From sequence record DRR378314_1793: a DNA stretch of 57,780 nucleotides; one strand, given 5' to 3'. Position 1 is the first letter of the stretch, and each line of letters begins with the position of its first letter. The position numbers were made by a program, and so were the translations under genes. This document shows positions 22,727 through 50,360 of the stretch, in pieces. The notes beneath the pieces were generated by a model, which had not been told where the DNA came from, made no database searches, and worked only from the letters and a program-made list of their open reading frames with translations.

Positions 22727-23539
22727 TTATTCTGTATCAGGTAAGTTACGACCGTAGAAAATCTCTTGCATCTCACGGGTTAACTTAGAACGAATTTCTT
22801 CTTCTTCGTCATCTGATAAGTCATCTGTAGACACACCAAATAAATAAGTATTTAAATCGGTCTCTTTTAGCATCATCTTAGTGTGGAACAAGTTTTCTTG
22901 ATACACGTTCACATCCATCATTTGATACGCTTCTTTAGTATCTTCAGTCATGTAATTCTGAATCGAATTAATCGCATGATCGATATAATGTTTTACGCCA
23001 TCTACATCACGGGTAAAACCACGTACACGGTAGTCAATTGTCACCACGTCTGAATCCAAGCTGTGAATTAAGAAGTTCAGCGCTTTTAGTGGCGAGATAA
23101 TGCCACACGTAGATACTTCTATATCAGCACGGAAGGTACAAATACCATCATCAGGATGTGCTTCAGGATACGTGTGAACGCAAATATGGCTTTTGTCTAA
23201 ATGCGCAACAACAGTGTCAGGCAATGGCCCTGGTGTTTCGTCAACATCGTAGGTTTGCTGCTGCTCGATTGGCTCCTCAGACACCAATATTGTGACACTG
23301 GCACCTTGCGGATCATAATCTTGGCGAGAAACATTCAGAATGTTTGCGCCGATAATATCAACCACTTCACCTAAAATATCGGTTAGTCGATCAGCATTAT
23401 ACTGTTCGTCGATATATTCAATATATTCTTTACGCTGTTGTTCGGTCTTTGCGTAGCAAATATCGTAAATACTAAAGCTTAAACTTTTGGTTAAGTTATT
23501 AAAGCCATGTAGTTTAATTTTATCGAAGGGTTTGTTCAT
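22727..23539 (-). CDS. speD: S-adenosylmethionine decarboxylase proenzyme (E. coli type)
   Basis: [38 protein letters not shown] cleavage region, STCG. Confidence 0.97.
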
Positions 23540-24612: not shown

Positions 24613-26097
<1,485 letters not shown>

Positions 26098-27114
26098 TTA
26101 TAAGCTTGTTGCGGTAACGGTATCGCCCGCTTGTAAATGAAGTGCGTCTGCCATTGCTTGTGGCAATGTAAGCTCTGCACTTGTCGCATCGAAGTTTAAC
26201 TGTGCGACAGTTGCTCTAAAGTCATTTAATTTATCATTCGCTAGCATTACTGGCGTGTCACCGCTGTTTTCACCAATTTTTACGGTAAAGTTTTTGGCAT
26301 TACGAATAGTCGCAATATTACCTACTTTCGCTTCAACAGTCGGGCCCGCATCAAAAATATCAACGTAGCCATTAAAGGTGAAGCCTTCACTTTTTAATAA
26401 CTCAATTGCTGGGCGTGTATTGTTATGGACTTTGCCAATCACTTCTTGTGCACCTTTACTTAACAGGTTCACGTAAATTGGGTATTTAGGCATTAGTTCA
26501 GCAATAAACACTTTTTGGCCAATGCCAGTTAGGTAATCTGCCGTTGGGAAATCCATTGAGAAAAAGTGCTCTTCAAGCCATTGCCAAAATGGGCTATCAC
26601 CATTTTCATTCGATACACCACGCATTTCTGCAATAACTGTTTCAGCGAAACGCTGCTGATGTTGTTTTATAAACATAAAGCGTGCTTTTGACAGCAGTTT
26701 ACCGTTATTATTTTTACGGTAACCATCTTTCAAAAATAACGTGCACAATTCAGTAGCGCCGGTGTAATCGTTACAGAGCGTTAAAATATCAACCGCTTTG
26801 TATACATCAAGCGTACGTGATGAGTGAATCACTTTACTTAAATGATAATGGTAAAATGCATCATCTAAACCTACAGCGGCTTCAATAGCCGAAGTTCCGA
26901 CGACTTCACCTGTTTCGCTATCTTCAAGAACAAACAAGTAACCTTCATCACCCGGGTGAGATGCACTTTTTGCGAATGAGCTTAATGAATGGTCTATTTT
27001 CTTTTGTAATAACGCTTCGTTATTCGGTAAAGACGTAAAGCCATGGCCCGATTCGTGGGCTATTTTCAATAAAGCTGGGTAATCACATTGCTGGATTGGG
27101 CGAAGGATCATCAT
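26098..27114 (-). CDS. astA: Arginine N-succinyltransferase
   Basis: GFTSLP, ELCTLFL, AEMRG, SPFW, ELMPKYPIY, YVDIFDAGP. Confidence 0.96.
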   Translation of the reverse strand: MMILRPIQQCDYPALLKIAHESGHGFTSLPNNEALLQKKIDHSLSSFAKSASHPGDEGYLFVLEDSETGEVVGTSAIEAAVGLDDAFYHYHLSKVIHSSRTLDVYKAVDILTLCNDYTGATELCTLFLKDGYRKNNNGKLLSKARFMFIKQHQQRFAETVIAEMRGVSNENGDSPFWQWLEEHFFSMDFPTADYLTGIGQKVFIAELMPKYPIYVNLLSKGAQEVIGKVHNNTRPAIELLKSEGFTFNGYVDIFDAGPTVEAKVGNIATIRNAKNFTVKIGENSGDTPVMLANDKLNDFRATVAQLNFDATSAELTLPQAMADALHLQAGDTVTATSL

Positions 27115-27200
27115 GAGTCCGCTTGCTCCCTTATATATAACGGTAAATTAGAATGTCAGGGCAAGCTTGCTACTTGCCCTAAATAAGATGAGACGGGTAA

Positions 27201-28454
<1,254 letters not shown>

Positions 28455-42446: not shown

Positions 42447-43856
42447 TTAAGTACCACAAAAAGTTTGATAATTTTTTTCATCTGAAGCTGCATAATTCCA
42501 TGACTCATTGATGCTTTGAGTATAGGGGTTTTGCAGTGCTTGTAAGTATTCGCTTAGTATGGGACTTTGGTTCGATTCAGCAAAGTCTTTTAGGATTTTT
42601 TCTACCATATAGTTACGCGGGATCAATGTTGGATTAACTTTTCGCATGATTGAGTAACTTTGTTTGTGTGTCCTGTGAGCCCACTTCTCAGACCAAGAGG
42701 ATAATACCGAAGGAAGTGTTACACTTTCTTTCAACGACCTCGTTAAACTGTCAAACGTATTGGTATAGTCAAGAGAGTTATCTTTTAACAATGCTAATAA
42801 CTCAGCCACTAACTCGCTATCTTCAGGTTTGTGCCCATCCAACCCTAGCTTTTGCGCCCACATGTCAGTAAATGCGTGATTAAACTTTTCTGCAAAACTA
42901 TTAATTAGAGGGCTAAGTAAAGCAACGGCTTGTTCATCATCTTCGTTTATTAACGGTATTAAACTCTCAGCTAACCGTGCGCAATTCCAGTTTGCAATAT
43001 TAGGTTGATTGCCGAATGCGTAACGGCCTTGACGGTCAATGGAGCTAAATACTGTATCAAAATCAAAGTTATTCATCATCGCACACGGGCCATAATCAAT
43101 GGTTTCACCGCTGACAAGTGTGTTATCTGTATTCATTACACCGTGAATAAACCCCACCCGCATCCAGCTCACAACTAGTTCTATTTGTTTTTTTATTACC
43201 TCATTCAAGAAGGCTAAATAACGCTCAGGACCCGTGCTTTGTATATGTGGATAATGTCGTGTAATTGCCAAATCAGCTAAGGCTTTTAAACCTACAACAT
43301 CTCCTTGCGTTGCTAAATACTGAAATGACCCTACTCTGATATGACTTGATGCAACTCGAGTCACAATCGCGCCAGGCTGTGGTGGTTGTCTGTAAACGGT
43401 TTCGCCCGTTGCGACCACCGCTAAACATCGAGTTGTCGGCACGCCTAGTGCGTGCATTGCTTCACTCATTATGTATTCACGTACTGCCGGGCCAATAGCG
43501 CAGCGGCCATCACCACCACGAGAAAACGGTGTCGCCCCAGAGCCTTTTAACTGAATGTCCCAAAGCAACCCTTGTTGATCGGCAACAGCCCCAAGTAAAT
43601 GCGCGCGGCCATCTCCTAAGCGAGGTGAAAAGTGACCAAATTGATGGCCAGAATAGCCCAGCGCAACGGGCGCTACAGTTGAGTCTATTTGGTTACCACT
43701 AAGCACTGCGGCTTGCTGTGCTGATGAAACATCAATACTCAATTGTTTAGCCACAGCGTCGTTAAATAACAGCAGCGAGGGCTCGCCAACTGGACTCGGT
43801 CTATCGGCGATAGCAAATTGCTCTGCTATGTCGGTATAGCGTGATACTAATTTCAT
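42447..43856 (-). CDS. selO: Protein adenylyltransferase SelO (YdiU)
   Basis: YSGHQFG, LGDGRA, QLKGSGATPFSRGGDGR, HGVMNTDN, IDYGP, C-terminal TFCGT. Confidence 0.93.
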   Translation of the reverse strand: MKLVSRYTDIAEQFAIADRPSPVGEPSLLLFNDAVAKQLSIDVSSAQQAAVLSGNQIDSTVAPVALGYSGHQFGHFSPRLGDGRAHLLGAVADQQGLLWDIQLKGSGATPFSRGGDGRCAIGPAVREYIMSEAMHALGVPTTRCLAVVATGETVYRQPPQPGAIVTRVASSHIRVGSFQYLATQGDVVGLKALADLAITRHYPHIQSTGPERYLAFLNEVIKKQIELVVSWMRVGFIHGVMNTDNTLVSGETIDYGPCAMMNNFDFDTVFSSIDRQGRYAFGNQPNIANWNCARLAESLIPLINEDDEQAVALLSPLINSFAEKFNHAFTDMWAQKLGLDGHKPEDSELVAELLALLKDNSLDYTNTFDSLTRSLKESVTLPSVLSSWSEKWAHRTHKQSYSIMRKVNPTLIPRNYMVEKILKDFAESNQSPILSEYLQALQNPYTQSINESWNYAASDEKNYQTFCGT

Positions 43857-44696: not shown

Positions 44697-44752
44697 CACC
44701 GCCATTACCCCTATTTAAGGTGTGAGTTTGAACATTTTAAACTCACACTGTG

Positions 44753-44942
44753 GGCTAGAAGAGGTGCGTTATTCAGGTAACGTATGTGAGGAGCACACAC
44801 TCCAGTGATCATACGTGAGGGGAATTAACGCCGAGAAATAACACTTTTTGTGAAGGGTTATTTCGGGCGACTGGGTTGAATCCCAGCGACTGTCACCAAC
44901 AACAGCTGCGCTGTTGATAAGTTTGGTGGAGAGCTTCTGGTC
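44753..44942 (+). ncRNA. Lysine riboswitch (L-box)
   Basis: P1 GGCTAGAAG/CTTCTGGTC, AGAGGTGC, GGGGAAT...CGCCGAG, CTGGG-TTGAAT-CCCAG, ACTGTCACCA...TGGTGGAGAGCT; upstream of dapA. Confidence 0.93.
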
Positions 44943-45079
44943 TTAGCATAATAAGGCCTGCGCGCCCTATTATTTAAGCCCATTCGCTCTTCGAATTTTA
45001 AAGTTCGACTGATGTAAATGCGGCATATCTATATTTCTTCCTCATTTTACTCAGCGAACACCTGATAAGTTCGTTGCAG

Positions 45080-45964
45080 ATGAAAAACAACCTTAATTTA
45101 AACGACTACCCGCTATGGACCGCTCTCGTCACGCCTTTTACTGACCGCGGCGAAGTAGATTATGCGGTACTTGAACAACTTGTTGCACAACAACAAGCTG
45201 CTAATAATGGCATTTTACTACTCGGTAGTACGGGCGAAGGCTTAGCGCTTAGTCTGAAAGAGCAACAAGCCATTGTTGAGCATGTATGTCAGTTAGAACT
45301 CAATGTGCCATTAATGGTTGCCGTTGGCGGTATGAACCTAACCCAACAAATTGCGTGGGTAGAGTACTGTAATCAACTGCCTATTCACGGTTATTTACTG
45401 GGCTCACCGCTGTATGCCAAGCCTGGCGTTGTAGGTCAAACTCATTGGTTTGAAAGCCTACTCAACGCAAGTGATCACCCATGCATGCTCTATAACGTAC
45501 CTGGTCGCAGTGCGGTAGATATTCCACCAGCCGTTGTTAGCACTTTAAAGGATCATAAAAATTTATGGGCACTTAAAGAAGCCAGCGGTGATATTGCTAA
45601 ATTTGAAGGGTTTAGAAAAGCCTCGCCAGAGTTAGCAATATTCAGCGGTGATGATGCCCTTATGCCTTATTTTTCTCAAGCCGGAGCGAAAGGCTTGGTT
45701 TCTGTAGCAGCTAATGCATGGCCAGCACAAACCCATGAGTTTGTTAAGCGCAGCCTTAGCGGTCAGCACCCAAATTTATTTGCTGATTGGTCGCAAGCAA
45801 TCCATAGCTTGTTTGCCGTCGCAAACCCCATTCCCGTAAAAGTTTTGATGCATTTACAAGGGCGACTAAACAGCCCGTATTTGCGTCCACCGTTAACTCA
45901 TCTCGAGCTAACGCAAACAGATTGCATTAACAATGCAAACAACACCATTTTATCTTGGCATTAA
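45080..45964 (+). CDS. dapA: 4-hydroxy-tetrahydrodipicolinate synthase
   Basis: TALVTPF, GSTGE, LYNVPGR, LKEASGD (Schiff-base Lys), SGDD, NPIPVK; ATG 45080 chosen over TTG 45074. Confidence 0.9.
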   Translation: MKNNLNLNDYPLWTALVTPFTDRGEVDYAVLEQLVAQQQAANNGILLLGSTGEGLALSLKEQQAIVEHVCQLELNVPLMVAVGGMNLTQQIAWVEYCNQLPIHGYLLGSPLYAKPGVVGQTHWFESLLNASDHPCMLYNVPGRSAVDIPPAVVSTLKDHKNLWALKEASGDIAKFEGFRKASPELAIFSGDDALMPYFSQAGAKGLVSVAANAWPAQTHEFVKRSLSGQHPNLFADWSQAIHSLFAVANPIPVKVLMHLQGRLNSPYLRPPLTHLELTQTDCINNANNTILSWH

Positions 45965-45979
45965 ACACAGGTTTTTATA

Positions 45980-46720
45980 ATGAGCTGGTTAGAACTATTA
46001 AATAATTTAGAATCAGGCGCCGTTCGCGCTGCAACACAAGACGAAAAAGGCCAATGGCACGCTAATATTGAAGTAAAACAAGGTATTTTAGAAGCGTTTA
46101 AAAACGGTACTAACACCGAGTTTGCCGGTGGTTTTGTTGATAAGCACAACTTGGCACCGCAAGAATTTACCGCCGAAAATGGCGTACGTATGGTACCCGG
46201 TGGTTCAAGTGTTCGCCGTGGTGCACACGTTGCTAAAGGCACAATTATTATGCCACCAGCGTATGTAAATATTGGTGCGTTTATTGACGAAGGCACTATG
46301 GTTGATAGCCACGCTCTTGTTGGTTCGTGTGCACAAGTAGGTAAAAACGTTCATCTAAGTGCTGCTGTGCAACTAGGTGGTGTGCTGGAACCAATTGGCG
46401 CAAGCCCTGTTGTTGTAGAAGACGATGCGTTCATCGGTGCAGGCTGTGTAATCGTTGAAGGGGTCGTTGTTAAAAAAGGTGCGGTACTTGCGCCAGGTGT
46501 GCGTTTATCAGCCACAATCCCAGTTTATGACTGCGTTAACGAGCGTCAACTAGATAAAGGCGAGCCAATCCCTGAGTACGCCATTGTGATCCCTGGCTCA
46601 CGCCCGGCTTCAAATGACTGGGCACGCGAGCAGGGCTTAAGCATGTCATGTGCATTAATCGTAAAATACCGTGATGAACAAAGTGATGCGTCTTTACTAC
46701 TAGAAGAGGTTTTACGTTAA
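45980..46720 (+). CDS. dapD: Tetrahydrodipicolinate N-succinyltransferase
   Basis: YVNIGAFIDEGTMVDSHALVGSCAQVGKNVHLS, GGVLEP, VEDDAFIG hexapeptide repeats. Confidence 0.92.
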   Translation: MSWLELLNNLESGAVRAATQDEKGQWHANIEVKQGILEAFKNGTNTEFAGGFVDKHNLAPQEFTAENGVRMVPGGSSVRRGAHVAKGTIIMPPAYVNIGAFIDEGTMVDSHALVGSCAQVGKNVHLSAAVQLGGVLEPIGASPVVVEDDAFIGAGCVIVEGVVVKKGAVLAPGVRLSATIPVYDCVNERQLDKGEPIPEYAIVIPGSRPASNDWAREQGLSMSCALIVKYRDEQSDASLLLEEVLR

Positions 46721-47925
46721 TGACCTTTTTGAGCACGCCAGTTAAAACCGCCATTGGTGAACTTTCGAGTAACCTCGATACCCCATTTTTTGTCTACGAT
46801 CTCGACTCACTAAATACACATTTAGCGCGTTTAGTGGCGCAAACCGAAGTAAAACTTTGGTACGCAGTTAAAGCCAACCCACTGTCTAAAGTCATACAAA
46901 GTTTAGATAACGCAGGCTTTAACTTTGATGTTGCAAGTAAAGGCGAACTTGAGCAAGTACTTGCTCAAGGTATTAACAGCGAGCGCGTGCTCAACACTGG
47001 GCCTGCAAAGAGCCCTAAACAAATTAAACACTTTATCGAGCGAGGAGTGCGTATATTTGTCGCCGAAAGTCTCAATCAAGTGCGTTGGCTAAATGAGCAA
47101 GCAATTGCAAAACAGTGCCAACTACAGGTGTTATTGCGTGTGCAATTACGTTGGCCTGAAGGTGAAAAAAACCCACTAGGGGGCGACAGCCTTACACCAT
47201 TTGGCTTAGGCTGCGATGAATGGCAAGCACTCAATACGAGTGATTACCCTGCACTTAACTTTGATGGCCTGCATATTTTTCAATGGGGAAATATGCTTAG
47301 TAGCGACAAACTCGCCCAGCTTTGGTCACAAATGGTCGCGCCACTACAGCAGCTAGCAAGCGATTTAGGTATTCATTTAAACGTGCTCGATTTAGGCGGT
47401 GGCTTAGGCATTCCTTACACGCTTGATGCACCAACTTTGAGTTGGGATGCGTTAATCGATGAACTTGCAAAAATTAAGCGTGATTCTGGCGTTGAAGAGT
47501 TATGGATGGAGCTTGGCCGTTATGCTGTCGGCGAATGTGGTCATTACGTAACCCCTGTTGTCGAGCGAAAATTAAATTATGGGCAACAACAAGTCATTTT
47601 AAGCGGTGGCATTAATCACTTATTACGCCCAGCGGTCACTAGCCAAGATTTCCCAGCGCGGTTATTACGTGATTCAACAGCACCAAACCAAGCAATGAGC
47701 TTATACGGCCCGTTATGTACTGCGCTTGACTGCTTAGGTGAGCATCATTTACCGAATGATTTAAATGAAGATGATTGGCTCGCATTTAGTCAATGTGGTG
47801 CTTATGGTTTTACTGAAAGCATGCCCTACTTTTTATGCCATGAACTTGCCGCTGAGTATGTATTACAAAACGGTAAATTATCCTGTATTCGCCAAGCAGA
47901 AGATGCCAGTCACTACTTAAGGTAA
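46720..47925 (+). CDS. Fold-type III PLP decarboxylase (Orn/DAP/Arg family; BtrK/SbnH-like rather than canonical LysA)
   Basis: YAVKAN PLP Lys, DVASKGE, DLGGG, ELGRY, GPLCTALD, GAYG; TAATG coupling to dapD. Confidence 0.85.
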   Translation: MTFLSTPVKTAIGELSSNLDTPFFVYDLDSLNTHLARLVAQTEVKLWYAVKANPLSKVIQSLDNAGFNFDVASKGELEQVLAQGINSERVLNTGPAKSPKQIKHFIERGVRIFVAESLNQVRWLNEQAIAKQCQLQVLLRVQLRWPEGEKNPLGGDSLTPFGLGCDEWQALNTSDYPALNFDGLHIFQWGNMLSSDKLAQLWSQMVAPLQQLASDLGIHLNVLDLGGGLGIPYTLDAPTLSWDALIDELAKIKRDSGVEELWMELGRYAVGECGHYVTPVVERKLNYGQQQVILSGGINHLLRPAVTSQDFPARLLRDSTAPNQAMSLYGPLCTALDCLGEHHLPNDLNEDDWLAFSQCGAYGFTESMPYFLCHELAAEYVLQNGKLSCIRQAEDASHYLR

Positions 47926-47930
47926 TTGAG

Positions 47931-49052
47931 ATGAGTAATACAACCCCAATCAGCCAAGAAAACATTGTCGTGGGTGAGGTTGCCAACGGCTTACCGCTAA
48001 CCATTCCGGTGTATCGTTTAAAAGGCGATGGCAGCGGACCAAGCGTTTATATACAAGCAAATATGCATGGCGCGGAAGTACAAGGCAACGCGGTCATTTA
48101 TCAATTGCTCGAACAGCTAAAGCAATTGAACTTAAAAGGTGATATCACTTTAGTGCCCTACGCGAACCCAATTGGTTGCAATCAAAAGTCAGGGGAATTT
48201 ACTCTTGGTCGCTTTGATCCAATTACGGGCACTAACTGGAACCGTATGTATCATTGCAACAGTCAATTAGCTGTTAACTTTGCAGAGCAATACCGTGATG
48301 CTGATGATAAAACCTTAAAAACAGCGTTTAAATCCGCATTGATAAATGAAATAGAACAACAGTTAGCCGGGCCAGATTATCGTTTAACCACAGGCAAACG
48401 TATTGCACTTAATTTACAAAAGCTCGCACACCAAGCAGATATTGTCCTCGACTTACACACAGGCCCTATTTCTAGCCAGCACCTATATTGCCCTGACTAC
48501 GCAAAGCAAAGCGCCAGCTATTTTAATATCCCCCACGTACTACTTATTCCAAATGATTTTGACGGCGCAATGGACGAAGCCAGCTTTTGTCCTTGGTGGC
48601 AATTAACTGAACAATTAGCAAAGCAAGGCCGTGAATTTAACGTACAAGTCGAAGCGTTTACTGTTGAGCTAGGTAGCCAAGAAAAAATCGATTTAAGCGC
48701 AGCATTGGATGACGCCAACAGTATTTTAAGTTATTTAAATCATAAGCAGGTTTTTGTTGATGCGCCCTTTCAACCAAAACAAATGAAGCGCTATGGCTGT
48801 CTGCTCGCTGACTACTTCGCTTACTACGCGCCCATGGGTGGCATGGTTGAATATATAGCCCCGCTTGGTGGCCATATTAAAGCTGGCGAGCCAATTGCTA
48901 AAGTATTACGAATGGAGCGCTACCTTAGTGAACAGCCATTACAAACCCTCACTCTCGATTGTGATGCCATTGCAATTTTGCACTTTGCCTCAGCAAGTGT
49001 GAATCAAGGCACCGAACTCTACAAATTTTTCACCAACGTATTTGAGCTTTAG
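47931..49052 (+). CDS. M14 succinylglutamate desuccinylase/aspartoacylase family protein
   Basis: HGAE Zn ligands, NP, NWNR, DLH, TVELG catalytic Glu, C-terminal lipoyl-like domain. Confidence 0.85.
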   Translation: MSNTTPISQENIVVGEVANGLPLTIPVYRLKGDGSGPSVYIQANMHGAEVQGNAVIYQLLEQLKQLNLKGDITLVPYANPIGCNQKSGEFTLGRFDPITGTNWNRMYHCNSQLAVNFAEQYRDADDKTLKTAFKSALINEIEQQLAGPDYRLTTGKRIALNLQKLAHQADIVLDLHTGPISSQHLYCPDYAKQSASYFNIPHVLLIPNDFDGAMDEASFCPWWQLTEQLAKQGREFNVQVEAFTVELGSQEKIDLSAALDDANSILSYLNHKQVFVDAPFQPKQMKRYGCLLADYFAYYAPMGGMVEYIAPLGGHIKAGEPIAKVLRMERYLSEQPLQTLTLDCDAIAILHFASASVNQGTELYKFFTNVFEL

Positions 49053-49120
49053 ATTCTTTAGAGCTCACCCCTTCTCATTGCGTGAGAGCACGATTATCCA
49101 AGTGGAAAAAGTGCATGAAC

Positions 49121-49146
49121 GAGCGGCTTCGGCCGCTTTTTCTTTG
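49121..49146 (+). terminator. Intrinsic terminator closing the lysine operon
   Basis: GAGCGGC-TTCG-GCCGCTTTTTCTTT. Confidence 0.88.
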
Positions 49147-49319: not shown

Positions 49320-50360
49320 ATGACTTGGCGCAATGGGATTTTACTTACTACGTTGTTATCAACTAGCGTGTTGGCACAACAAGCAGACCCACAAAAGACA
49401 AACGAACAAGACAGTGATATTGAATTAGTAAAACAATGCATCTTAAACGAAGCAATAGCAGGGGACGAAAACCAAACCCTAGCACAGCTTCGAAAAAAAT
49501 GTTCTGCACTAGATGAAACTAAGCAAATAACTGCGCTTGATAAACGCAAAGCACGTGAACAAGTAAGTCAAAAAAATCGCAATGTTATCACGCCCCATAA
49601 GCGTAACTATTTGCTGCCATTATCCTATGTATCAAATCCAAATACTCGCCCTTTTGGCCGACTAAACGAACTATCTGACGAACCCACCGGCGAGCAGCTT
49701 GATAACCTAGAAGTGAAGTACCAACTTTCAATTAAAGTACCGCTCTATAATGATTTTGCAGATGACGATCAAACTGTATTTTTTGGTTTTACCTTGCAGT
49801 CATTTTGGCAGTTTTATAACAACGAAATTTCATCGCCATTTCGCGAAACAAACTATGAGCCTGAAATTTTTTGGATTAACTACCTCGACCCTGAAAACGT
49901 ACTTTGGGGTGATGAAATGGCGATATCTATAGGGATGGTGCATCAATCAAATGGTCGTAGCCAGCCTAACTCTCGTTCATGGAATCGAATTTATGCTGAT
50001 TTCTTATGGGAGAAAGATGGCTTTGTATTTAGTTTCAAGCCTTGGTACCGCATTCCTGAAGATAGAAAAGAAGATCCTATGGAAGCCAAGGGCGACGATA
50101 ACCCAGATATATACAAATATATGGGCTATTTTGAGTTTGGTGGCGCTTATCGCTACGAAGAGCATGAATTTAGTTTTATGACACGCAATAACTTAAATTC
50201 AGATAACCGCGGTGCGATCCAGCTTGACTGGTCATTCCCGCTATGGGGCCGATTAAGAGGTTATGCACAATACTTTAATGGTTATGGTGAAAGCTTAATC
50301 GATTACAACGCGGATATTGAGCGCATAGGTGTGGGTATTTTATTAACTGATTTACTCTAA
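49320..50360 (+). CDS. pldA: Outer membrane phospholipase A
   Basis: KYQLSIK, SSPFRETNYEPE, HQSNG catalytic motif, SRSWNR, GYGESLIDYN. Confidence 0.95.
   Translation: MTWRNGILLTTLLSTSVLAQQADPQKTNEQDSDIELVKQCILNEAIAGDENQTLAQLRKKCSALDETKQITALDKRKAREQVSQKNRNVITPHKRNYLLPLSYVSNPNTRPFGRLNELSDEPTGEQLDNLEVKYQLSIKVPLYNDFADDDQTVFFGFTLQSFWQFYNNEISSPFRETNYEPEIFWINYLDPENVLWGDEMAISIGMVHQSNGRSQPNSRSWNRIYADFLWEKDGFVFSFKPWYRIPEDRKEDPMEAKGDDNPDIYKYMGYFEFGGAYRYEEHEFSFMTRNNLNSDNRGAIQLDWSFPLWGRLRGYAQYFNGYGESLIDYNADIERIGVGILLTDLL

Follow-up and report, generated by a model that had tools for sequence, protein, structure and literature searches.

A lysine riboswitch operon of Pseudoalteromonas with a fold-III decarboxylase distinct from LysA and an AstE/AspA-family deacylase

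The synthesis of lysine and diaminopimelate (DAP) follows a textbook pathway that is also a target of antibiotics. The stretch of DNA analyzed here (57,780 nucleotides from sequence record DRR378314_1793; hereafter the window), which is assigned to the genus Pseudoalteromonas from the names of near-identical proteins, contains an operon in which a lysine riboswitch precedes genes for DapA (dapA2), DapD (dapD2), a fold-III pyridoxal phosphate (PLP)-dependent decarboxylase (deC), and a predicted zinc deacylase of the AstE/AspA family (M14). The four genes are best explained as a second, lysine-repressed set for the succinylase branch of the DAP pathway, and sequence comparisons suggest, as the best explanation of its origin, that the operon is the Pseudoalteromonas remnant of a widespread lysC-dapB-dapA-dapD-deC-M14(-aminotransferase) cluster. 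For the two terminal enzymes we favor, with confidence that stands near the midpoint, an order in which M14 would desuccinylate succinyl-DAP and deC would then decarboxylate free DAP, in either the meso or the LL form. According to this scheme, the operon would be expressed when lysine is low, and DapA2 and DapD2 would push flux to N-succinyl-LL-DAP, with DapB and a transaminase supplied from elsewhere (e.g., ArgD/AstC). M14, a putative zinc hydrolase unrelated to the M20 enzyme DapE, would strip the succinyl group to yield LL-DAP. deC would then convert free DAP to L-lysine, either from meso-DAP after DapF, as an analog of LysA, or directly at an L-center of LL-DAP, bypassing DapF; these two variants appear about equally likely. 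Under all readings left standing, the pathway holds at least one enzyme that has no assigned role here.

The riboswitch aptamer (44751-44944, plus strand) matched Rfam family RF00168 over the whole model (positions 1-182 of 182; 101 bits against a gathering threshold of 30; E 9.7e-26), as a preliminary description of this DNA had proposed from the letters alone, and a scan of the window returned no other Rfam match. Between the aptamer and dapA2 lies a leader or expression platform (44945-45073, plus strand) in which a consensus scan found no terminator-like site, and the minimum free energy fold of 44751-45095 (z -3.4) displayed no clear expression platform; function as an off-switch is deduced from the biosynthetic cargo. 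The four genes follow on the plus strand: dapA2 (45074-45964; 296 amino acids), dapD2 (45980-46720; 246 amino acids), deC (46720-47925; 401 amino acids), and M14 (47931-49052; 373 amino acids), with 15 nt between the first two genes, a 1-nt overlap between the next two, and 5 nt before M14. A terminator-like hairpin, followed by a T-run, is present at 49121-49138 (plus strand). Since the hairpin scan of the window detected four sites against a shuffle mean of 5.6 (i.e., no excess over shuffles), this hairpin carries weight because of its position after the last gene, not because of the scan total. Neither the list of open reading frames (ORFs) nor family profile searches placed a dapB, dapE (M20), or dapF gene inside the operon, so that the initial picture of a tightly packed, hairpin-closed dapA-dapD-decarboxylase-M14 set without these three genes stands.

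As judged by profile match, dapA2 is a second 4-hydroxy-tetrahydrodipicolinate synthase gene (TIGR00674, 257.9 bits; cut-off 206.15), for which the ATG at 45080 may be an alternative start. dapD2 is predicted to encode a short-type tetrahydrodipicolinate N-succinyltransferase (NF008808, 296.7 bits; cut-off 204), the choice of succinyl- over acetyl-type following model names only; it scored below the cut-offs of both the gamma-type model TIGR00965 (184.9 versus 375.4) and the acetyl-type model TIGR03532 (99.8 versus 231.75). The nearest genome to the window (G001, with 76% of sampled words in common) served as a stand-in for the source genome. In G001, canonical lysA (534.6 bits) adjoins dapF (331.4 bits), canonical dapD (479.5 bits) is located on contig C18, another dapA on contig C28, and canonical dapE (562 bits) lies away from the operon. 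Because the canonical set is also present, the operon is an additional, lysine-controlled gene set beside the canonical pathway. G001 also contains a second DapE-like gene (C43:136908-138017), which scored 374.2 bits against the dapE_proteo cut-off of 361.8.

Identity of the decarboxylase and the deacylase

deC contains the Pfam domains PF02784 (106.3 bits) and PF00278 (61 bits) and keeps the characteristic fold-III set, namely the PLP lysine, the G-G-G phosphate loop, E-x-G-R, the catalytic Cys, and G-A-Y. It nevertheless fell below the cut-off of the lysA model TIGR01048 (195.4 versus 297.9 bits), on which copies from clusters in other genomes scored 168-220, and below those of TIGR03099, the model for BtrK and exosortase-associated decarboxylases (204.1 versus 478.45), and the FslC model (47 versus 500); identity to the canonical LysA of G001 was 28% (128 bits). 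Alignment with ten co-resident canonical LysA sequences highlighted four divergent pocket segments, in which LysA HIGSQ corresponds to FQWGN in deC, ND-x-x-RP-x-LY to NH-x-x-RPAL(T/I/V) (R-P-A-V-T in the window), CE(T/S)xD to CT(A/S)xD, and GAYG-x-x-M to GAYGFTES. The corresponding window motifs are HIFQWGN, INHLLRPAV, GPLCTALD, and GAYGFTES. Both C-E-(T/S)-x-D and L-Y were found in 10/10 co-resident canonical LysA, and the Tyr of R-P-x-L-Y presumably has a role at the distal L-center. The preliminary description had pointed to GPLCTALD in place of the C-E-type motif of canonical LysA and had noted a C-T motif in BtrK; both are borne out by alignment, the motif reading GPLCTALD in deC, GPVCETSD in Vibrio cholerae LysA, and GPLCTPED in BtrK.

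A FastTree phylogeny of 80 sequences, from which top-ranked representatives outside 370-470 amino acids were omitted, resolved LysA (10 sequences) and deC (20 sequences and P0159) as separate clades, each with support of 1.0. deC was nested among uncharacterized C-T-type proteins with common motifs, and its sister clade includes no characterized member. By score, motifs, and tree, deC falls outside the LysA family, in agreement with the original view that it is not a canonical LysA. Four proteins (P0147, P0151, P0161, and P0178) exceeded the lysA cut-off (301-330 bits versus 297.9) despite having C-T for C-E. Since 4 of the 10 proteins scored from this surrounding clade thus pass, the NCBIfam cut-off alone does not define chemistry, and these four may carry the LysA name without the LysA substrate site. 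Databases label the deC family either as "LysA" or simply as "PLP-dependent decarboxylase."

In structures of DAP decarboxylases, as described in PMC7857480, a helix Arg binds the distal carboxylate of meso-DAP and an acid beside the catalytic Cys holds the amine of the side chain. deC retains the specificity-helix Arg, is without the acid beside the catalytic Cys, and has His in place of the helix Asp, a combination that fits an N-acylated DAP as had been suggested at the outset. The best solved sequence match of deC was BtrK (125 bits, E 2.5e-35, approximately 25% identity), as compared to 115 bits for LysA. An AlphaFold2 model of deC (mean predicted local distance difference test [pLDDT] score 92.8) superimposed on BtrK, LysA, and SbnH with template modeling (TM) scores of 0.82-0.87 (BtrK, 0.85); because Foldseek thus returned a tie among the three, the fold says nothing on the substrate of deC.

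M14 matched PF24827 (AstE_AspA_cat) with 105.6 bits against a cut-off of 25. Among 15 M14 sequences, H46 and E49 (H46-x-x-E49), H176, E246, R94, and N104-R105 were invariant; R94 and R105 were the only invariant Arg residues, and a D215-E216 pair was also invariant. We take the metal-binding and catalytic residues to be those that correspond to aspartoacylase. AstE, aspartoacylase, and DoeB hydrolyze N-alpha-acyl-L-amino acids, and M14 shares with them the Pfam catalytic domain and the H-x-x-E...H...E pattern. Unlike AstE and DoeB, however, M14 exceeds the cut-off of no equivalog model, and its setting is lysine synthesis rather than arginine or ectoine breakdown. The sole NCBIfam match was to DoeB (N2-acetyl-diaminobutyrate deacetylase) at 33.9 bits, far under the cut-off of 402.7, and AstE equivalog models gave no match at E<=0.001. 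M14 contains no M20 domain and displays no homology to DapE model TIGR01246; if M14 acts like DapE, it would do so as an analog. Two orthologous structures already exist (PDB 3fmc and 3lwu, E ~1e-135), neither with an assigned function. The AlphaFold2 model of M14 has a pLDDT of 88.6, and the Protein Atlas offers family names only.

Distribution of the cluster and of its last two genes

The cluster was found in Bacteriovoracaceae, in several gammaproteobacterial lineages, and in 16/59 sampled genera of the window's family, and M14 was present in 140/140 genomes of the window's genus. A cross-species scan, using one genome per species, identified 364 contigs with a deC relative, and the best 80 loci, mostly from Bacteriovoracaceae, were analyzed. 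dapD was directly 5' of deC in 75 of these 80 loci, a contig end cutting three of the remaining five, and lysC, dapB, and dapA were upstream of dapD in most. M14 was directly 3' of deC in 48/80 loci and a few kb off in seven, while in 20 the stretch of at least 1.5 kb 3' of deC contained no M14; five loci were too short to judge. dapF was within the locus in only 2/80. A lysine riboswitch preceded lysC in six of the seven cluster loci scanned. The occurrence of deC and M14 within lysine clusters of several phyla, mostly behind lysine riboswitches, upholds their earlier assignment to lysine synthesis. In eight Bacteriovoracaceae loci (L069, L070, L073, L074, L078, L080, L082, and L084), a class-I/II aminotransferase gene follows M14 and a divergent asd is found upstream wherever the locus extends that far, such that every aspartate-to-lysine step but dapF is encoded at one locus.

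Among 400 genomes sampled evenly across the class, deC (threshold E<=1e-60) was present in four, namely G001, G166, G205, and G403; these four, together with G325, which has M14 only, were also the five best M14-matching genomes. G166, the sole sampled genome of its family and of its order, measures 1.5 Mb, is 97% complete, and has dapB-asd-lysC-dapA-dapD-deC-M14 in one row. In G205 and G403 the order is transaminase-asd-lysC-dapB-dapA-dapD-deC, and M14 lies elsewhere in the genome. In the window's family (221 genomes from 59 genera; deC threshold E<=1e-70), deC was detected in 64 genomes (16/59 genera) and M14 in 138 genomes (35/59 genera), and a reading of the two tables places M14 next to deC in 64/64 deC-bearing genomes. 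The cluster is common in marine Alteromonadaceae and predatory Bacteriovoracaceae.

Several small genomes have the cluster as their only visible lysine route. deC was the sole TIGR01048 match in G166 and in 5/30 further deC genomes (G545, G548, G552, G556, and G559). As the only LysA-like gene in these six genomes, deC must, on gene content, be the lysine-forming enzyme there. G166, G205, and G403, all bearing deC and M14, gave no DapE match at E<=1e-10. DapL and Ddh were considered as a detour around DapE and rejected: Ddh gave no match at E<=1e-10 in the five genomes searched (G001, G166, G205, G325, and G403), the DapL model TIGR03542 stayed below cut-off in the same five and had no match at E<=1e-40 in the 30 others, and a second DapL model, TIGR03540, weakly matched two cluster transaminases only. 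Because G166, G205, and G403 lack detectable DapE, DapL, and Ddh by these searches, M14 is a candidate succinyl-DAP desuccinylase in these three gammaproteobacterial genomes. The idea that deC and M14 can stand in for canonical enzymes is supported by the six genomes in which deC is the only LysA-like gene and by the three without a DapE match, and assigning the two proteins would fill LysA and DapE gaps in genome-scale models. With respect to co-occurrence of the pair with absence of canonical lysA, canonical LysA was absent only from M14-bearing genomes (5/19 versus 0/11), a weak association (one-sided Fisher p 0.08) among related genomes. G205 and G403 (with loci L033, L034, and L116) are 2-Mb genomes that have, beside the deC cluster, a lysA match over the cut-off. 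No DapF-family member was detected in either genome, including in a search with Pfam PF01678 at a threshold of E 0.01; this unexplained absence is not taken as evidence for a DapF bypass.

Each gene also occurs without the other, and an inseparable deC-M14 pair is not supported. M14 was found without deC in 74/221 family genomes, as orthologs at 60-65% identity. Among 12 M14-only loci inspected for context (11 of which were scanned for riboswitches), two had the arrangement riboswitch-dapA-M14 (genus g322), one had lysC-M14, and nine had no lysine genes nearby. Conversely, 11/30 deC genomes lacked M14 at E<=1e-15 (G560-G570; loci L090, L093, L094, L097, L098, L100, L102, L104, L106, L109, and L117). 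These genomes have the riboswitch/lysC-dapB-dapA-dapD-deC arrangement, and no conserved gene was present 3' of deC; some desuccinylase of another kind must exist in them.

The nine M14 loci without lysine genes are reminiscent of a different function, in which M14 would be an N2-acyl-L-lysine deacylase for acyl-lysine salvage or repair and deC would be the DAP decarboxylase of the cluster. The distant DoeB match, the invariant Arg set of just R94 and R105, and the D215-E216 pair would suit such an enzyme, and it may be speculated that the product of the window's astA, an arginine N2-succinyltransferase, mis-succinylates lysine. We nonetheless consider this function improbable, given that M14 ends biosynthetic clusters in 48/80 loci and is present in the three DapE-less gammaproteobacterial genomes, and that this function presupposes a hypothetical source of acyl-lysine. 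The setting in genus g372 may be a salvage context: at L133 (4735-8078) and L134 (5058-8398), M14 lies between a conserved ORF of 409-410 amino acids, for which there was no NCBIfam match, and one of 295-298 amino acids, and no riboswitch was found at either locus. The ORF of the 295-298 class in L133 weakly matched a DMT-type "carboxylate/amino acid/amine transporter" model.

Order of the two reactions

The preliminary description proposed that deC acts first, decarboxylating N-succinyl-LL-DAP to N2-succinyl-L-lysine, which M14 would deacylate to L-lysine without DapE, DapF, or LysA. The role in lysine synthesis and the fit of the pocket remain, whereas the pair proved separable; we consider this route possible but somewhat doubtful. 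Consistent with it, retention of the helix Arg for the distal carboxylate of DAP, loss of the amine-binding acid, and replacement of the helix Asp by His together match a substrate with one amine fewer and one carboxylate more. deC lies outside the LysA clade, and the C-T motif of its wider clade is shared with BtrK. dapD and deC are almost always adjacent (75/80 loci) and share a single base in the window, the dapA-dapD-deC-M14 gene order is colinear with the proposed pathway, and the full cluster supplies all aspartate-to-lysine steps save dapF. The loss of canonical LysA only alongside M14, weak as it is, points in the same direction, as does the persistence of canonical LysA beside deC elsewhere. 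On the other hand, each gene is found without its partner, lysine riboswitch operons being among the M14-only loci, and DapE-less genomes still require LL-DAP for cell wall synthesis, for which M14 would have to accept succinyl-DAP as well. The RPAL, C-T, and FTES motifs are common to a larger sister clade of deC and hence are not specific to the cluster. A literature search, which took in neither subscription journals nor supplements, returned no succinyl-lysine (N2-succinyl-lysine) as a biosynthetic intermediate, no succinyl-DAP decarboxylase, and no AstE/AspA enzyme behind a lysine riboswitch.

The order that we favor, desuccinylation by M14 followed by decarboxylation of free DAP by deC, draws on the same distribution. 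In genomes that have M14 but not deC, succinyl-DAP is the only N-succinylated substrate of the lysine pathway with a free amino acid end, and the separability of the two genes argues against a dedicated decarboxylate-then-desuccinylate pair. In addition, the Glu of GAYGFTES is invariant in deC, whereas the corresponding position in LysA is occupied by Met or a different uncharged residue; this Glu might be a relocated partner for the free distal amine, which would suit either M14-first variant.

Several observations weigh against the M14-first order. The retained Arg and lost amine-binding acid of the deC pocket argue for decarboxylation first, and the acid beside the catalytic Cys is likewise replaced in an N-citrylornithine decarboxylase, whose substrate is N-acylated, as described in PMC7857480. 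The divergence of deC from ten co-resident LysA in all four pocket motifs, and the ranking of BtrK over LysA as its best solved match, albeit by a small margin, likewise count against it. Canonical LysA is kept beside deC in 25/30 deC genomes and in G001, which is odd for a pure isozyme. With respect to M14, canonical DapE was kept in 5/5 M14-only genomes tested, so that M14 is not simply a replacement for DapE. None of the 11 M14-less deC genomes had a clear DapE over the cut-off (three had weak M20 matches), and the other desuccinylase expected in them might exist in G166 as well as in the family of G205 and G403.

Setting the order aside, the chance that deC uses an L-center (succinyl-LL-DAP or LL-DAP) rather than meso-DAP is roughly balanced. 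Within that share, action on N-succinyl-LL-DAP is a tentative prospect, and action on LL-DAP after desuccinylation by M14 is a still less likely one. There is likewise about an even chance that deC catalyzes a reaction not yet described. If deC does act at an L-center, lysine would be made on a riboswitch-controlled branch that diverges from the DAP pathway ahead of DapF. The cell-wall pool of meso-DAP would then be spared as a source of lysine, and decarboxylation of succinyl-LL-DAP or LL-DAP would be a new activity in a textbook pathway.

Published relatives and neighboring genes

The operon shares with the canonical succinylase branch (DapD, DapC/ArgD, DapE, DapF, and LysA) its start at DapA and DapD, a succinylated intermediate, and the product. 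It differs in having an M14/AstE-AspA zinc enzyme rather than M20 DapE as its deacylase, a decarboxylase that fails the LysA model and motifs, and a cluster without dapF. BtrK, SbnH, and FigC/FslC, grouped as "clade 2" in PMC7857480, are fold-III enzymes that decarboxylate L-amino acids in acylated or tethered form. deC resembles BtrK in fold, in being closest to it among solved sequences, and in having C-T where LysA has C-E; at approximately 25% identity, however, it keeps a LysA-like L-R-P-A helix that is absent from BtrK. Unlike BtrK, SbnH, and FslC, deC has lysine genes as neighbors, and neither a carrier protein nor a siderophore synthetase is encoded close by. Replacement of DapE by a different amidohydrolase has a precedent in the alternative DapE of Bacteroidota (the Echvi_1427 family), which, as reported in PMC13759103, was found because genomes retaining DapD had a gap at this step and was proven by complementation. 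The kin of that family are metal-dependent dipeptidases and an N-acetyl-DAP deacetylase (PMC13759103), whereas M14 belongs to the AstE/AspA family and its role is predicted.

The operon itself has been published. A 2017 survey (PMC5584792) lists a riboswitch operon "dapA-dapD-lysA-hypothetical1-hypothetical2" in Pseudoalteromonas, naming the decarboxylase lysA and M14 hypothetical; the available text of the survey does not explain the roles of these last two enzymes. The survey held the operon to be genus-specific (PMC5584792), as compared to 16/59 family genera and Bacteriovoracaceae for the cluster here. "Hypothetical2" is probably the phospholipase A homolog at 49320-50360 (plus strand; NF008031, 212.8 bits, below the cut-off of 369), from which M14 is separated in the window by the terminator-like hairpin.

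Elsewhere in the window, an astC/argD-type transaminase gene (27201-28406, minus strand) matched NF003468 ("acetylornithine/succinyldiaminopimelate transaminase") with 740.4 bits against a cut-off of 522, and its product is a candidate enzyme, from outside the operon, for the aminotransferase reaction that leads to succinyl-DAP, in line with the suggestion made initially. It lies in a row with astA (26098-27114, minus strand) and astD (24613-26082, minus strand), and no astB or astE was found beside this row (24613-28406) among ORFs of at least 180 amino acids. The window thus has astC, astA, and astD without an adjoining astE, and AstE/AspA is the Pfam family of M14, which raises the alternative that the last two operon genes are unrelated to lysine, M14 being the missing AstE and deC a polyamine or natural-product decarboxylase. 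We regard this as very improbable: both genes are behind a lysine riboswitch whose leader has no terminator-like site, their linkage to dapD, dapA, and lysC recurs in different phyla, M14 did not match the AstE equivalogs at E<=0.001, and PMC7857480 places the wider clade of deC outside polyamine synthesis. Beyond astD, the next listed gene (ORF threshold 180 amino acids) is speD (22727-23539). Upstream of the operon and divergent from it is a homolog of the SelO/YdiU-family protein adenylyltransferases (42447-43856, minus strand; NF000658, 485.8 bits).

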